Assembly: GCA_963829055.1 (NCBI GenBank)
Contig: CAWHHI010000005.1
Coordinates: forward strand, 192,001 to 256,000
Length of the DNA: 64,000 nt
Origin: an uncultured Gemmatimonadaceae bacterium
Lineage (GTDB): Bacteria > Gemmatimonadota > Gemmatimonadetes > Gemmatimonadales > Gemmatimonadaceae
Direction: 5' to 3'
Shown here: positions 13,011-19,896 of the stretch, piece after piece
Layout of the letters: each line of letters begins with the position of its first letter
Numbering within the stretch: the stretch's first letter is position 1
The notes under the pieces: model-generated
The model's database searches: none
Told to the model about the DNA's origin: nothing
The model's input: only the letters and a program-made list of their open reading frames with translations
Translations under genes and position numbers: made by a program

Positions 13011-13421
13011 TCCCTGTTCCGGTTCGCGCTCGACGTTCTCCGCGGCCAGCATAATATCCATCGTAGAACGTGCAGAACATGCAGCACTACGGCGCGAGAG
13101 TGTAGGCACTGCGGCGGACGAGCGAGTACACCGCGGCCGATACGTCTCATGGAGGAGTCATGGAACGGAGCAGAAGAATGGGCCAGGCACTACCGGCCGG
13201 CGTCGAGCAGCCGGACGATGCGTTCATGCGACGCATCCGCTATGTAGTGGATTTCGCGGACACGTAGGCAGAGCGGGCTCGTCAATCGTCGCGCCGTCAC
13301 CCAGTCGTTGCTTGGGCGACGACGACCACGGCGGTACCTTGGTCAGCCCGCCAGCACATCGTCGACCGCCGACGTCCCGACGATCGGACACGATCTGCCA
13401 CCCTTCGCGCCAAGACTCAGA

Positions 13422-16400
13422 ATGCGCTACCGGATTGCTCCCGCGGCAACGCTGCTCGCCGCCCTCGCACTCGCCGCCTGTTCCGGGCGCGACACCGTCC
13501 TCGCACCAGTCGCGCCGCCCGCGCCACGTGGGGATGTGGCGACTGCAGTGGCGCCGCCGACCGTCTACTTCAGCGAGATCCACTACGACAACGTCGGCGC
13601 TGACGCCGACGAGCGCATCGAGATCACCGGCCCCGCCGGCACGGACCTCACTGGCTGGCAGGTCGTGCTCTACAACGGCAACGGCGGCGTCACCTACAAC
13701 ACGCAGACGCTGAGCGGCACCATCCCGGCGACGTGCGGCGCGAACGGCGTGGTCGTCCTGACGTATCCCGCGGACGGCATCCAGAACGGCAGTCCCGACG
13801 GCATGGCGCTCGTGAACGGCGGCGGCCAGGTCGTCGAGTTCCTGTCCTACGAGGGGACGTTCGCCGCGACGAACGGGCCGGCGTTAGGCATGACGTCGGT
13901 GGACATCGGCGTGCTCGAGAACGGCGCGCCCGTTGGACAATCGCTCCAGCGGAGCAGCGCCGGCACGTGGAGCGGCCCGGTCGCGAGCACGTTCGGCGCC
14001 TGCAACGACGACGGTGGCCAACCTCCCGCCGCGGTCGCGAAGGTCACCGTCGCGCCGGCCGCGGCGTCGATCGCGCAGGGCGCCACCCAGACGTTCACCG
14101 CGACGGCCTTCGACGCGTCGAACCAGCCGGTCGCGGGCGTCACGTTCACGTGGACGAGCAGCGCCACGGCCGTCGCGACGGTGAGCGCGACCGGCGTCGC
14201 GACCGCGCTGCAACCGGGCGACGTCACGATCACGGCGACGGCGCCTAACGCCATTACCGGGACGGCGTCGCTCCACGTCGATCGCGCCGTCGACGCCGGG
14301 CCTGCCCGAAACGCGGTTCAGCGAGCTGCACTACGACAACTTCGGCACGGACGTCGACGAAGCGATCGAGATCGAAGGACCCGCGGGCACCGATCGCTCA
14401 CGGGCTGGAGCATCGTGCTCTACAACGGCAACGGCGGCGTGCAGTACAACACGCAGCCACTGACGCGGAACGATCCCCGCGACGTGCGACGCCCGCGGTG
14501 TCGTCGTCGTGAACTACCCGCAGGACGGGATCCAGAACGGCAGCCCCGACGGAATGGCACTGGTGAACGCGGCCGGTGAAGTCGTGGAGTTCCTCTCGTA
14601 CGAAGGGACGTTCACCGCGACCGATGGCCCCGCGTCAGGCAAGACCGTCGACGACATCGGTGTGTCGGAGTCATCGTCACCGCTCGGACAATCGCTGCAG
14701 CGCTACCTCGGCGGGCGTCTGGCAGCAGCCGGCGACATCGAGCTTCGGCGCCTGCAACGGTAGCGGCGGCGGCCGAACCCCGGCGGCAACACGATCAGCT
14801 TCACCGGCCGTACGCCCAGTGACCCGGCGCTTCCCGTCGGCTTCCAGGATCAGCTCTTCGCGACCGTGCGCGACGCCGAACAACGTCGACCGTCACCACG
14901 ACCATCACGTGGACGACTCGGAGACGCCGGCCATCGCGCGCATCGACCAGAACGGCGTCATCACCGCGCTCGCGGCCGGCAGCGCCACGTTCCGCGCGAC
15001 GGCCGCCGACGGCCTAACGACGGCCACGTTCGCACTCCCCGTCGCGCGTCGCGGTCGCCAGCACCACGGCGCAATACGCTGGCAACGCGGAGTTCGGCGA
15101 GCCGGCCGACAGCCGACCCGAGCGACGACTTCATCGTCCGCCACCCGGAGTACACGGCGTCGTTCAACAAGAACCGCGGCACGCCGAACTGGGTCAGCTA
15201 CGATCTCGAGGCCACGCACTTCGGCCCCGAGGACCGCTGCGACTGCTTCACGTTCGACCCGTCGCTGCCGGCTGCGTTCACGCGCTACACCACCGCCGAC
15301 TACACCGGCGCCGGCGCTGCCGCCGGTTTCGGTATCGACCGCGGCCATCTCGCCCGCTCGTTCGACCGCACGTCGGCGAGTCTCGACAACGCGTTCACGT
15401 TCCTGTTCACGAACATCGTGCCGCAGGCCGCCGACCTGAACCAGGGTCCATGGGCGACCATGGAAAACTTCCTCGGCGACCTCGCTCGGCTCCAGAACAA
15501 GGAGGTCTACATCGTCGCCGGCGTCGCGGGCAACATTGGCACGGTCAAGAACGAGGGGAAGATCGTGATCCCCGCGTCCACCTGGAAAGTCGCGGTGATC
15601 ATGCCGCGCGATCAGGGGCTCGCGACATCACGACACTCGGCGACCTCGAGGTCATCGCCGTGATCATGCCTAACCGAGCCCGGCGTGCGGAACGTCGACT
15701 GGCAGACGTACAAGACGACCGTCGACGCCGTCGAAGCGCTGAGCGGCTACGACCTGCTCGCGCTCCTGCGCGACGACATCGAGAACGCGGTCGAGAGCGG
15801 CAAGACGACAGCGGCGCCCATAGCAGCCATCGAATGGACCGTACACGTCGCTCGAAGGATCGGCGGTCGTCGATGAGCGCTGCCGGCTCCAGTGACGCGG
15901 ACGGCGGTACGCTCACGTACCTGTGGAGCTTCGGCGACGGCGGGACCGCGAGCGGCCTCGACTGTGTCGCACACGTACTCCGCGGATGGCGGCTACAACG
16001 TTAGGCTCATCGTGAACAGCTCGAGCGGGCTCGCCGATACGATCTTCACCACCGCGACGGTCGCGAACGTCGCCCCAGCCATCGCCTCGTTCGCCGGAGC
16101 TACGCTGCTTCCGGGCGAGACGTACGCTGCCACGGGATCGTTCACGGATCCGGGCACGGACGCGTGGACGGCGACGGTCGACTACGGCGATGGCTCGGGA
16201 CTCGTACCGCTGGCCCTCTCCGGCAAGACGTTCTCGCTCTCGCACACGTACGCCGGCGCTGGCTCCTTCACCGTCACGGTCCGCGTGAGGGACGACGACG
16301 TCACCTCGACGCGGACTGCGACGGTGACGGTGCTGACGCCGGAGGAGGGCATCGACAAGGCGATCGCGATCGTGAATGAGCTCCTGGCAGACGGAAAGAT

Positions 16401-16678
16401 CGACGCCGGCATCGCGAGCTCGCTCACGTCGAAGCTCGGCGGCGCGAAGACGTCGCTTCTGCACGAGACCACACACGCCGCGCTCGGAAAGCTCGAAGCC
16501 GTGCTCGATGAGCTCGAATGCCCTGATACACGGAGGTCACGTGTCCGCCTCGGACGTCGACGCGTTGCACGAGCTCGTCGAGCGCGTCATCAAGTCGATT
16601 ACGTACGTGCACCTTGTCATTCCGAGCGAGACGGCAGACGGGAGACGAGGAATCGAGGAATCCATGAGCTGCCGGTAG
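13422..16678 (+). CDS. Lipoprotein DNA/RNA non-specific endonuclease with LTD-like, Ig-like (Big_2) and PKD domains; several frameshifts
   Basis: Lipobox LAAC; two SEIHYDN...GIQNGSPDG repeats; DRGHL and NIVPQ..LNQGPW (NucA/EndoG); PKD YLWSFGDG. Confidence 0.8.
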
Positions 16679-16745
16679 AGAGGCTCCCTCTACCCGGCAT
16701 CCCAAGATTCCTCGACTCCGCCGCTTCGCGGCTTCGCTCGGAATG
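16615..16745. repeat. Palindromic REP/MITE-like element, copy B
   Basis: Same ends and GAGGAATC / GTAGAG-CTCTAC / GATTCCTC core as copy A. Confidence 0.9.
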
Positions 16746-16778
16746 CACGGCTGTAACGGCAGGTTTACTCTTAGCCGC

Positions 16779-17120
16779 ATGATGCTCCGCGCGCGCAACC
16801 TGTTCCTGGCCTGGCTCACCTACGGCGCCCTGCAGCTCGCGCTGCTGGGCGTCCCGGGCGCAGCCGCGCAGCCAGGCGTCGGGAATCGCGACGCACGGTC
16901 GCAGTCCGAGTCCCAGTCGGTCTCGTTCGGCAAGCGCCTCGTCGCGCCCGACAGCATCGACCGTCGGACCCCGACGACGCCGTTCGCGCCGTCGCGCCAC
17001 ATTGGCCTCGATCTGCCCGTCGTCGCAGGCAGCACGGCCGTCGTTGTCCCGCAGCACCACGACGGCTCCGACGCATCGCTCGCCCTCCCACCCGCACGCG
17101 CTCCACCCGCTCTCGCCTGA
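16779..17120 (+). CDS. Secreted leader protein with C-terminal RAPP motif (candidate arrest peptide upstream of secDF)
   Basis: Hydrophobic N-terminus ending AAA-Q; C-terminus ...LPPARAPPALA*; 123 nt before the secDF ATG. Confidence 0.7.
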   Translation: MMLRARNLFLAWLTYGALQLALLGVPGAAAQPGVGNRDARSQSESQSVSFGKRLVAPDSIDRRTPTTPFAPSRHIGLDLPVVAGSTAVVVPQHHDGSDASLALPPARAPPALA

Positions 17121-17243
17121 GCCGTCGCGCCTCTTCGGCGCGCCCATCACAACTCCGCCGGTCTTCACCTAACGCCGCCCGCGTCCGCGAGCAGGCGTGG
17201 CCGGCGCACGGCTTTCCGCGACCCGCGGAAGGAGAGCAGCCAC

Positions 17244-19896
17244 ATGAAATCGATCAGGTGGCGAGTGATCATCATCCTCGCCCTCGTTGTCGCGAGCGTC
17301 TTCGCGCTCGTACCCCGCAGCGTCAAGCAGCGCCTCTACGACTCGCGCACCGGTCAGATGCGCGACACCACCGTCCGCCGCGTTCCCATCAACATGGGCC
17401 TCGACCTTCGCGGCGGTGTTCACCTCGCGCTCGAGGTCGACGAGTCGCGCGGCAAAGTCGCCGATTGCGCCGACGCGATCCGTCGCGCCGAACGCGTCGT
17501 GCGCGCACGCATCGACGAGTTCGGAACGACGGAGCCCGTCGTCCAGATCGCGAGCGACTGTCGCCTGGTTGTCGAGCTTCCCGGCGAGACCGATCCCGCA
17601 CGCGCCCGGTCGATCGTCGAACGCACGGCGTTCCTCGAGTTCCGCATCACGGACGCGAAGGAGCAATTCCGGCGCGCGCTCCCCTCGATCGATGTCGCGT
17701 TGCGACGAGCGGGAGTTGCAAACGCCGCGGCGCCGCGGACGACCGCCAGCGCAGATGTCGTCACCGGTCTCCTCTCGCCCGACAGTGCGCGTGCTACGAC
17801 TGACACCACGATCAACGCGGCCAACGCCACGACCGAGGGCGGCGTGCTGTCGTCGCTCCTCACGCCTGGTCGTGTCCCTGGAGAATTCATCGTCGCCGAA
17901 GAAAGCGTCGCTCAGGTCGAGCAGCTGATCGCGAAGCCGGAGGTGCAGCAACTCGTTCCGCGCGGACTCGAGCTGCGATGGGGCACACCGATCGCGACGC
18001 GAGAGACGCGAGCGTTCCGGCCACTTTACGCGCTGCAGTCGCGAGCCATCATCACCGGCGAGGAAATCCAGAAAGCCGTCGCTGGCCGAGACCCCACGAC
18101 CAACGCGGCCGAAGTGCAGTTCGAGCTCACGCGGCCCGGCGGACGCCAGTTCGGCGACGCGACCGGTCGCAACATCGGCAATCACCTCGCGATCCTGCTC
18201 GACGGGCGCGTACAGGGCGAGCCGCCCGTCATCCGCGACCGCATCACGTCGAACGGACGCATCGAGCTCGGTGGCAAGTCGCTCGAGGAAGCAAACGACC
18301 TCGCGCTCATGCTGCGCGCCGGCGCGCTTCCGGTACCGCTCCATGTCGTCGCCCAGGGAACCATCGGCCCGTCGCTCGGCATGGACTCCATCCGCGATGG
18401 CGTGCGCGCGTCGGCGCTTGCGGTTGGGTTCGTGCTGGTCGTCATGGGCGCGTACTACGGATTCGCCGGACTCCTCGCTGTCGCCGCGCTCGCCCTGTAC
18501 GTGCTCTACTGCCTTGGCGGTCTCGCCGTGTTCGGGTTCAACCTGACGCTCCCGGGACTCGCGGGCTTCGCGCTGTCCATCGGAATGGCGGTCGACGCGA
18601 ACGTGCTGATCTTCGAGCGCATGCGCGAAGAGCTCGACGCGGGGAAACCCGTTAGGCGCGCGATCGATGAAGGGTTTCGGCACGCGATGAGCGCCATCGT
18701 CGACTCGAACGTCACGACCGCGCTCACCGCGCTGATCCTGTACGTGGTGGGCACGGGACCCGTGCAGGGATTCGCGATCACGCTGCTCGTCGGACTCGTG
18801 GCGTCGATGGTCACCGCCGTCTTCGTCACGCGCACGTTCTTCCTCGTGTGGGTGAAAGCGCGTCCGAACATGACGACGCTTGAAGCATTTCACGTTCAGG
18901 CTGTTCGCGAACGCGCGCTACGACTTCATCGGCGTGCGACGCTGGGCGTACGGCGTGACGGCCGCGCTGATCGTGCCGGGCATGATCATGCTCGCCGCGA
19001 CTGGGCATCACGTACAGCATCGAGTTCACGGGCGGTGCGCTGATGCACGTGCGCACGGACGACGCCCGTGGAGACGACACGCCTCCGCACCGCGCTCGAG
19101 CGCGGCGGTGTGAACAACCCGGAGATTCAGAGCTTCGGCTCGGCGCAGGAGTACGTGATCCGCGCTCGTCTCGACGGAGCCGCGGACGGCAACACGCGGA
19201 GCGCCGAGATCGCGGCGTCGGTGAGCAAGGCGCTCGATGCCGACCTGGGCACGGGCACGTATCAGATCGTGCGCAGCGAGGGCGTCAGCTCCGAAGGTCG
19301 GCGGTGAGCTTCAGGAGAAAGCGCTCATCGCGATTCTCTTCAGCTTCGTCGCGACGCTCATCTACCTCGCGTTCCGCTTCGAGTGGCGCTTCGGCCTCGC
19401 GGCCGTGATCGCGACGGCGCACGACGTGCTCGCGACGGTCGCGTTCATTCGCTACCTGGATCTCGAGGTGAGTCTCGTCGTGGTGGCGGCGGTGCTCACG
19501 GTACTCGGCTACTCGCTCAACGACACGATCGTGATCTTCGATCGCGTGCGCGAGAACGTGAAGCTCCACGCGCGCAAGCCGCTGGCGGAGTTGTTGAATC
19601 TTTCGATCAACGAGACGTTGCCGCGGACGATACTCACCGGCGGCACGACGCTGGCGACGGCGCTCGTGCTCTCGTTCTTCGCCGGCGAGGTGATCAAGCC
19701 GTTCGCGCTGGTGATGACGTTCGGCATCATCGTCGGCACGTTCTCTTCGATCTTCGTCGCGTCGCCGGTGCTGCTCGGCATAACGCGGCGTTGGGGCACT
19801 CCGAAGCCGAGTACAAGCAGCAGTGTCATCCGCGCAGCCGAGCCAGCGCGTGTCATCCCGAGCGGCAGCGAGGGACCTTCCGTGACGTCATCGTAG
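17244..19896 (+). CDS. secDF: Protein translocase SecDF, probably fused; frameshifts at about 18880-19290
   Basis: MGLDLRGG, LRAGALP, IGPSLG, GMAVDANVLIFER, IVDSNVTT (SecD); IEFTGG, GYSLNDTIVIFDRVREN, GTFSSIFVASP (SecF). Confidence 0.9.

Follow-up and report, generated by a model that had tools for sequence, protein, structure and literature searches.

A candidate RAPP arrest peptide ahead of a second, fused secDF gene in Gemmatimonadaceae, and its possible descent from metal-type leaders

In this work we show that a second, fused secDF gene (secDF2) of an uncultured Gemmatimonadaceae bacterium is preceded by a conserved small open reading frame that ends in a predicted RAPP arrest motif, and that the encoded leader peptide resembles a family of metal-type His/CxxC leaders of the Gemmatimonadales. 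The leader ORF is located at 16779..17120 on the plus strand of the window, i.e. the whole stretch of 64,000 nucleotides that was analysed; it starts with the ATG at 16779, stops with the TGA ending at 17120, and its 113 residues end in LPPARAPPALA-stop. Our explanation, to which we assign as a whole a probability of about two in three, is the following. A leaderless mRNA would start at the ATG of the leader and continue into secDF2. Translation would halt once the third RAPP residue, Pro109, occupies the P site; at that point the N-terminal signal, which lies some 79 residues upstream, would be engaging the Sec translocon. Efficient export would exert a pull that frees the stall, and the ribosome would depart, after which the 3' end of the leader would pair with the secDF ribosome binding site (RBS) region about 120 nt downstream and keep secDF2 expression low. 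When export is weak, the ribosome would stay over the anti-RBS, and SecDF2 would be produced to serve as a back-up motor. The unit as a whole, from the promoter spacing through signal and arrest tail to the spacer, would have been inherited from a CruR/DUF2946-like metal-sensing leader of the Gemmatimonadales, which became positioned ahead of a secDF gene and whose His and Cys ligands were lost, such that export force would remain the sole input.

The secDF2 gene (17244..19896, plus strand) has its ATG at 17244, 123 nt past the leader stop. Its product contains Pfam SecD and SecDF domains and exceeds the cut-off of TIGR01129, and its named relatives are almost all from Gemmatimonadota, the closest ones being labelled Gemmatimonadaceae or Gemmatimonadota. 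The gene is intact in 6/6 congeners (867-882 aa) and encodes 806-862 aa in five other genomes; relative to the intact congeners, the copy in the window has four one-base indels between 18880 and 19290 (near 18880, 19001, 19064 and 19287). Because frameshifts are also present in the nuclease gene upstream and in two more operons of the assembly, these indels are likely assembly errors. The nuclease gene (13308-16782) is large, extends over several frames, and encodes a secreted protein with lamin-tail, Ig-like, non-specific endonuclease and PKD domains.

The genome holds two secDF systems. The other copy, on contig C16, is split, follows truB-ribF and has no leader. The 118 secD loci that we compared comprise 97 ribF-linked loci, 14 leader-led loci without ribF (in 9 genomes), 6 that are cut at the 5' end, and one further locus with only 83 nt upstream. 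No such leader was found at the 97 ribF-linked loci, 7 of which show RAPP-like words in Arg-rich shadow frames. Another secD is present in all 12 genomes with a leader-led copy. In the SecD tree the leader-led copies are placed apart from their hosts' own secD, on one side of a branch with support 100 and adjoining ribF-linked secD of another family, and a grouping with the hosts' own secD was rejected (p-AU 0.007; 32 of about 106 rows, LG+G4, no outgroup). This test was chosen after the first SecD tree had been seen; the trees are a FastTree tree and the 32-row tree, and the one row from an unpublished genome (G013) is ribF-linked and no result depends on it. Based on the branch placement and the rejected grouping, secDF2 is probably a xenologue, i.e. 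horizontally acquired, and not a local duplicate. Other branches of the Gemmatimonadales (L051, L053, L055, L060, L064, L101 and L106) have a fused secDF at the ribF-linked position as well, and hence the fusion arose more than once. The secD of L050, on a contig labelled Bacillota, nests within the Gemmatimonadales; this contig is possibly mis-binned.

The N-terminal part of the leader (16779..16868, plus strand) is a candidate export signal or signal anchor, with a basic n-region, a hydrophobic core and a weakly conserved A-x-A end. R6 is invariant, as is L18-Q19 in the hydrophobic core, and the hydropathy is 1.6 over 15 residues (range 1.6-2.4). A first-pass annotation of this DNA had described the N-terminus as signal-peptide-like, with which our assignment, made by pattern, agrees. 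The same annotation described the linker as being of low complexity; the linker is not featureless, since K52-R53, R62-R63 and T67-P-F-x-P71 are each conserved in at least 90%. Two elements can be distinguished in it on the plus strand: a putative vestigial metal-ligand block, QSESQS...GKRLVAPDSIDR (16902..16964), whose alignment to the metal-type sequence HxESH...CARxHxxDCAxC is gap-free and whose match to the metal-type leaders is marginal when taken alone, and a conserved element R-R-x-x-x-T-P-F-x-P (16962..16991), about 40-47 residues ahead of the arrest site and 96-99% conserved per conserved position among the 120 homologues listed. The predicted arrest motif (17097..17108, plus strand; codons CGC GCT CCA CCC) is followed by Ala-Leu-Ala-TGA. 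With the stall register of ApdA/ApdP as template (PMC10951233), the P-site codon is predicted at 17103-17105 (Pro109) and the A-site codon at 17106-17108. The distance from signal to arrest site is about 79 residues (residue 30 to 109), above the criterion of >30 for Sec monitoring substrates. The leader has no match in Pfam or NCBIfam. An alternative, longer ORF from the ATG at 16743 was ruled out; it is unconserved, and the spacing of the -10 hexamer suits 16779.

In a GC-rich genome the RAPP motif by itself is weak evidence, and it is conservation that decides. R[AG]PP occurs 2863 times in the six frames of the genome, 400 times at most 6 aa from a stop, and 6 of these 400 pass a crude signal-peptide filter. 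In gene-like ORFs, RAPP is depleted (6 observed versus 34.1 expected, compared with 48 versus 48.5 for AAPP), a depletion also reported for bacteria at large (PMC12992588). The leader ORF is present ahead of secDF in 6/6 congeners and in five genomes beyond the genus (G007, L044, G649, G589 and G681); its identity drops to 24-30%, yet frame, length (111-115) and tail persist. The pN/pS ratio calculated from seven congeneric sequences is 0.67 for the whole ORF and 0.72 for its middle, but falls to 0.33 for the last 14 codons; differences in these codons number 43/22/100 at codon positions 1/2/3. R-x-P-P is present in 120/120 homologues listed of the 162 found (113 RAPP, 6 RGPP and 1 RPPP), a count that is partly selected because the homologue profile includes the tail. 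The only frequent replacement of RAPP is RGPP, likewise a strong arrest motif (PMC12992588), and exactly three residues follow the motif in 104/113 RAPP members. None of the 120 listed homologues contains CxxC, and the Cys pair is absent from all of them. Conservation of a C-terminal RAPP upstream of secDF in relatives had been put forward as the check on the first-pass annotation, and it was passed: the motif is conserved in 12 genomes, against a threshold of at least three genomes of one order. Furthermore, a metagenome set of 48 loci included 42 with a full ORF and 6 with none under the pattern used; 3 had <200 nt downstream, and in all 39 contigs that were long enough, secD begins 107-128 nt past the leader stop. 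RNA-library contigs of relatives contain parts of leader and spacer at depth 2-9 in three runs (two apparently being the same data); DNA carry-over is possible in these contigs, which therefore provide no evidence of leader expression. Taking this conservation together, we are highly confident that the sequence encodes a real arrest peptide, which would be translated and would stall. That it is a non-functional relic or a chance ORF is highly improbable: R[AG]PP near stops is indeed common in shadow frames and secDF2 is frameshifted in the assembly, but down to 24% identity the sequences retain frame, length, motif and synonymous variation, and other operons of the assembly are also frameshifted, as sequencing errors would give.

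A -10-like hexamer, TACTCT (16766..16771, plus strand), lies 13 nt before the ATG of the leader and is the probable promoter of a leaderless mRNA. TAnnnT sequences starting at -16 to -11 are present in 32/35 distinct upstream regions versus 26/1390 background windows (1.9%), and a Shine-Dalgarno (SD)-like sequence is found upstream of the leader in only 4 of the 35 regions and is absent from the other 31. TAnnnT located 11-16 nt before an ATG, without an SD sequence, is the pattern of leaderless transcription, and to judge from these upstream regions the leader mRNA is probably leaderless. A sigma-70 promoter scan, which needs a -35 box, gave no promoter, and a terminator scan gave one minus-strand terminator-like match, at chance level. 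A REP-like inverted repeat, of whose left 14-mer the genome contains 173 copies, is located between the upstream gene and the leader promoter (16616-16747). Similar repeats adjoin the leader start in L148 and L149, both of which are without the -10 hexamer.

Re-reading of the sequence confirmed every coordinate of the first-pass annotation, i.e. those of the 113-aa ORF, RAPP (17097-17108), the 123-nt gap, the SD sequence AAGGAG (17229-17234), the hairpin near it, and the complementary GCTCTC (17109-17114) and GAGAGC (17232-17237). The pairing itself differs from what had been proposed. The SD region of secDF2, AAGGAGAGC (17229..17237, plus strand; weaker GAGAG/GGAG variants in orthologues), is complementary, as part of 17218-17237, to an anti-RBS at 17098..17116 (plus strand) that consists of the arrest codons and the last codons of the leader. 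In the window fold, CUCC of the RAPP codons (17101-17104) pairs with GGAG (17231-17234) with probability 0.97, whereas the GCUCUC:GAGAGC helix, for which the complementarity is present and which is the register of most orthologues, has a probability of 0.01. The hairpin CTTTCCGCG-acc-CGCGGAAGG (17212..17232, plus strand), in whose 3' arm the first-pass annotation placed the SD sequence, is not the repressing structure in our model, in which the SD is bound by the RAPP codons; this hairpin, which is missing in one sub-clade, forms only in the stalled state, once the ribosome footprint is removed. Another short GC hairpin (CGCGCC/GGCGCG; 17126..17142, plus strand) is found just past the stop, and similar hairpins follow the stop of metal-type leaders.

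The potential for this pairing extends to the relatives. For 30 non-redundant spacers, in which kin are not independent, the duplex of the 15 nt after RAPP with the RBS has an energy of -14.5 kcal/mol for cognate, -13.2 for non-cognate and -9.8 for shuffled pairs. The mean cost of opening the RBS decreases from 10.6 to 7.5 kcal/mol with the footprint removed, the drop exceeding 1 in 23/30 loci, and in 27/30 the natural 5' part makes RBS opening costlier than its own shuffles do. A superseded run, without rescaling and with the upstream RNA free, gave a drop >1 kcal/mol in 20/28 versus 7/28 for a control footprint. For the window itself the cost changes only from 12.8 to 11.6 kcal/mol, a gain of 1.2. 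Matched changes on both sides are seen in L147, with CUCGC/GCGAG where most have CUCUC/GAGAG, and also in L223 and L224; G589 and G649 have tail-RBS helices of 13 and 10 bp, respectively, in other letters. RNAalifold, applied to 28 spacers, gave neither a long-range helix nor an RBS hairpin, only local hairpins, with a two-sided change in 4/16 pairs. The metal-type leaders show tail-RBS pairing as well (-13.7 cognate versus -10.9 non-cognate; n=29 of 35 loci; the other six had no SD-marked start and were left out, and the rule misplaced several starts). We consider it very likely that the leader controls secDF2. The spacers of L029, L044, L247 and L248 contain ORFs of 12-27 codons that open from the occluded SD and overlap the secDF2 start by ATGA. 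Such ORFs are present in 4/5 early-branching loci, whereas L246 and the genus of the window have none; judging from this layout, tail-SD control would reach secDF by translational coupling in these loci.

The likeness to metal-type leaders emerged when a profile of eight secDF-leader sequences was searched against 400 genomes of the order. Its 12 non-self matches comprised 2 apparently spurious ones and 10 leaders with a signal, His/Cys and RAPP, which are located about 110 nt ahead of large exported proteins of the outer-membrane receptor type. Both of two scanned downstream genes encode a TonB plug; in a second set all 15 encode a carboxypeptidase-regulatory-like domain, 6 with a plug at E 1e-8. 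Metal-type leaders are present in 84/201 genomes including G000, i.e. in 83/200 other Gemmatimonadales genomes. CxxC lies 44 residues before RAPP in 22/26 of them, and their match to DUF2946 is weak (14/27 at E <=0.1, best 7.9e-5). The reciprocal match of the metal-type profile to the window ORF has E 7.7e-7. The metal-type set was seeded from matches of the secDF-leader profile and so leans towards similarity. Aligned with hhalign, the two families match over 117 columns with 97.6% probability and E 2.9e-12 (98.6% with a diverse alignment). Without the last 14 residues, i.e. the RAPP tail, the match is 91% with E 1.1e-6, above 40/40 column shuffles; the signal alone gives 85%, and the middle alone 0.9% with E 0.06 in the same register, a score that 1/40 column shuffles reaches. 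In this register HxESH lies opposite QSESQ and D-C-A-x-C opposite D-S-I-D-R, the ligand positions being replaced. The spacing from LQ to RAPP is 88-91 versus 87-94 in the two families, and residues 35-75 contain about 0.8 His+Cys in secDF leaders versus 6.5 in metal-type leaders.

An exhaustive search with the secDF-leader profile in 1.84 billion proteins gave 31 matches, 4 of which, as called, miss the terminal R-x-P-P. Two, P0140 and P0141, are full CxxC-type leaders of the form seen in Gemmatimonadales, with library-wide E-values of 4.3e-6 and 1.3e-5, respectively. Ligand-poor intermediates, known from the protein sequence alone, are P0139 (DSALRHF), P0144 (ARVHPADGTFGRF), P0102 (HSESHS) and also P0142. 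The secDF-linked leader of L044 retains His and scores 17 bits against a tail-less metal-type model, compared with a maximum of 11.2 for 787 controls, which are signal-like proteins of the window's genome; for the window protein the score is no higher than 6.5 bits, a value that 4/787 controls also reach. As a single query against 401 genomes of the phylum, the L044 leader gave no further secDF leader and five weak matches, one being a known metal-type locus. The closest clusters in the ESM Atlas include DUF2946 clusters (0.95), and 0/123 members of the secDF-leader family match Pfam PF11162 (DUF2946) at E <=0.1. In a tree of 64 leaders, the 12 secDF-led ones fall on one side (SH-aLRT 94); the tree is unrooted, so it does not give a direction.

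Based on these sequence comparisons, we are confident that the secDF leaders are homologous to the metal-type leaders. We infer the direction of descent from the distribution: metal-type leaders are widespread, and secDF-led ones were identified in 11/401 family genomes (of 18 new matches inspected, 3 lead secDF), and a derivation of the secDF leaders from the metal-type ones is therefore fairly likely. It is somewhat favoured that a cassette of promoter, peptide and spacer moved before secDF, that its ligands decayed through the intermediates still visible, that ORF remnants were left behind, that it spread horizontally, and that it was redeployed before an antiporter gene; the short ATGA-coupled ORFs may be remnants of the start of the earlier target. 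G004 contains a second leader copy (L245:2477-2815; G004:C43:14876-15214) that has kept RAPP and has a homologous spacer. The gene immediately downstream of this leader copy is not secDF but encodes a Na/H exchanger-TrkA_C protein (cation/proton antiporter). It is a second copy of the gene located after secDF2, and a similar gene is found at that position in G003 and G004.

The leader is thus a representative of a known class, the RAPP leaders of secDF, in a new lineage, and what is new is the ancestry link. The RQH family comprises 19 groups in nine phyla, the secDF branch being the uDF_RQH groups (Fujiwara et al. 2024, PMC10987492). Members of this branch likewise are small ORFs without known function before secDF, with an N-terminal export signal, a long spacer and a C-terminal RAPP/RGPP, and regulation of secDF2 through SD occlusion has been demonstrated for the Alteromonas member (PMC10987492). 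In contrast to the branch as described, the leader in the window is probably leaderless and has its own last codons as anti-RBS; moreover, RQH members have been described as sharing no overall similarity with other RAPP peptides (PMC10987492), whereas the window peptide does share it. Gemmatimonadota is mentioned nowhere in the main text of that paper and, the supplementary figures and the secDF list aside, the latter of which may include the family, its supplements name it in the genome list only. ApdA and ApdP (PMC7897499, PMC10951233) are also RAPP leaders of a secondary secDF with the same predicted P- and A-site register. They are set apart by description, ApdA being from Actinomycetota and ApdP from Alphaproteobacteria, while the named relatives here are from Gemmatimonadota. 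VemP-secDF2 and SecM-secA follow the same monitoring-substrate logic, and VemP likewise controls a second secDF, but its arrest sequence is unrelated, and SecM (RAGP) controls secA (PMC7897499). The position of the leader on an extra secDF copy fits the secDF2 pattern of VemP, ApdA and ApdP (PMC7897499).

Among metal-related leaders, CruR (Bp2923; DUF2946/PF11162) of Bordetella pertussis shares the signal, the long spacer and a RAPP three residues before the end (PMC9426467), and its distance from CxxC to RAPP is 45, compared with 44 in the Gemmatimonadales metal-type leaders, which lead TonB-type receptor genes. The window peptide differs from CruR by having no Cys and no Pfam match and by heading secDF, not a metal-homeostasis operon; CruR acts through Rho (PMC9426467). 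CruR arrests in vitro, and RAPP leaders are found before sec, TonB and copper genes (PMC12992588); the available part of that paper contains no link by descent between these groups, and its supplements, one file excepted, gave 0 matches. CutF of Rhodobacter capsulatus is a SecYEG-exported DUF2946 leader whose stall opens a downstream RBS (10.1101/2022.11.11.516240, 10.1101/2025.02.05.636593). It differs by its Cu-binding CxxxC, by poly-proline instead of RAPP and by its multicopper oxidase target, and no secD neighbour of CutF-type leaders is listed in the available parts of these two papers. The same papers propose Sec pulling force as part of CutF release, from which it would be a short step to a pure secretion monitor. 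The literature searched, which mostly did not cover subscription journals, contained no paper joining Gemmatimonadota with such leaders.

To judge from sequence, then, the window leader is one that would work like ApdP and VemP, shows the sequence features by which RQH members are recognised, and is not a member of DUF2946, since motif, Pfam match and gene context have all been lost. The lineage-specific Sec monitoring substrate proposed in the first-pass annotation is supported, the anatomy agreeing with published search criteria (PMC10987492). Added to that proposal are the extra, probably horizontally acquired secDF copy, the probably leaderless mRNA and the probable homology to the CruR/DUF2946-like leaders of the lineage. 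As a RAPP leader of secDF it merely adds one more lineage to a described class, and its value lies in the ancestry. If the link holds, we would have here one of the rare instances in which an arrest sensor can be seen to have evolved from another, and RAPP leaders, contrary to the prevailing view that they originated independently, would be modules that can be moved and given a new input and a new target; the pair of secDF and metal-type leaders offers a direct test of how the input of an arrest peptide is specified.

That prevailing view has to be weighed. Common versus independent origin of RAPP peptides was left open in PMC7897499, and independent origins, with peptides lacking overall similarity, are favoured in the discussion of PMC10987492. 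Along these lines, the leader could be an ordinary RQH secretion monitor of independent origin that resembles the metal-type leaders through its signal, RAPP tail, length and composition, which would agree with the marginal alignment of the middle alone and with the lack of DUF2946 matches among the members. We consider this quite unlikely, because the similarity persists without the tail, is near gap-free in a single register and is bridged by graded intermediates; two CxxC-type leaders of the Gemmatimonadales form appear among only 31 matches in the whole library, and the spacer architecture is common to both families.

The other alternatives concern input and output. The peptide might stall and control secDF2 in response to something other than force, such as ion motive force, pH, redox, or a ligand at R-R-x-x-x-T-P-F-x-P. 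The conservation of this element is 96-99%, and its tunnel-exit distance is that of the ancestral CxxC; in G003 and G004 secDF2 is followed by an antiporter gene, whose copy is headed by the leader paralogue; and the signal peptide of CruR is reported to be uninvolved in release (PMC9426467). Such an input is nevertheless improbable: the Cys pair is absent from 120/120 homologues listed and His+Cys amounts to about 0.8 versus 6.5, secDF is the target in 51/52 resolved contexts (12 genomes, 39 contigs and one antiporter paralogue, genomes and contigs partly overlapping), and a loss of proton motive force would act through export force anyway. We consider it likely that the leader senses export. 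As to the output, the stalled ribosome could block Rho-dependent termination, as it does in CruR (PMC9426467), with RBS pairing being secondary. The region 17030-17180 is C-rich (76 C, 34 G), and the RBS is still costly to open in the stalled-state model of the window; on the other side, the C excess is partly imposed by Pro and Arg codons, and the tail-RBS complementarity is cognate and shows matched changes. We regard a primarily Rho-dependent output as doubtful, the two outputs not being mutually exclusive, and retain control at the RBS as part of our export-monitor explanation.

The metal-type leaders themselves vary in motif and context. Six (L127, L129, L130, L186, L189 and L191) have CxxH instead of CxxC, and L235 and L242 are RAPP leaders ahead of small lipoprotein-like genes, not receptors. 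In G000, one His/Cys RAPP leader (G000:C12:136319-136666, plus strand) precedes a porin-like gene and metal ABC transporter genes, and another (G000:C20:300597-300980, minus strand) precedes TolC/membrane-fusion/RND-like genes in a czcI-like layout, these labels having been assigned by eye.
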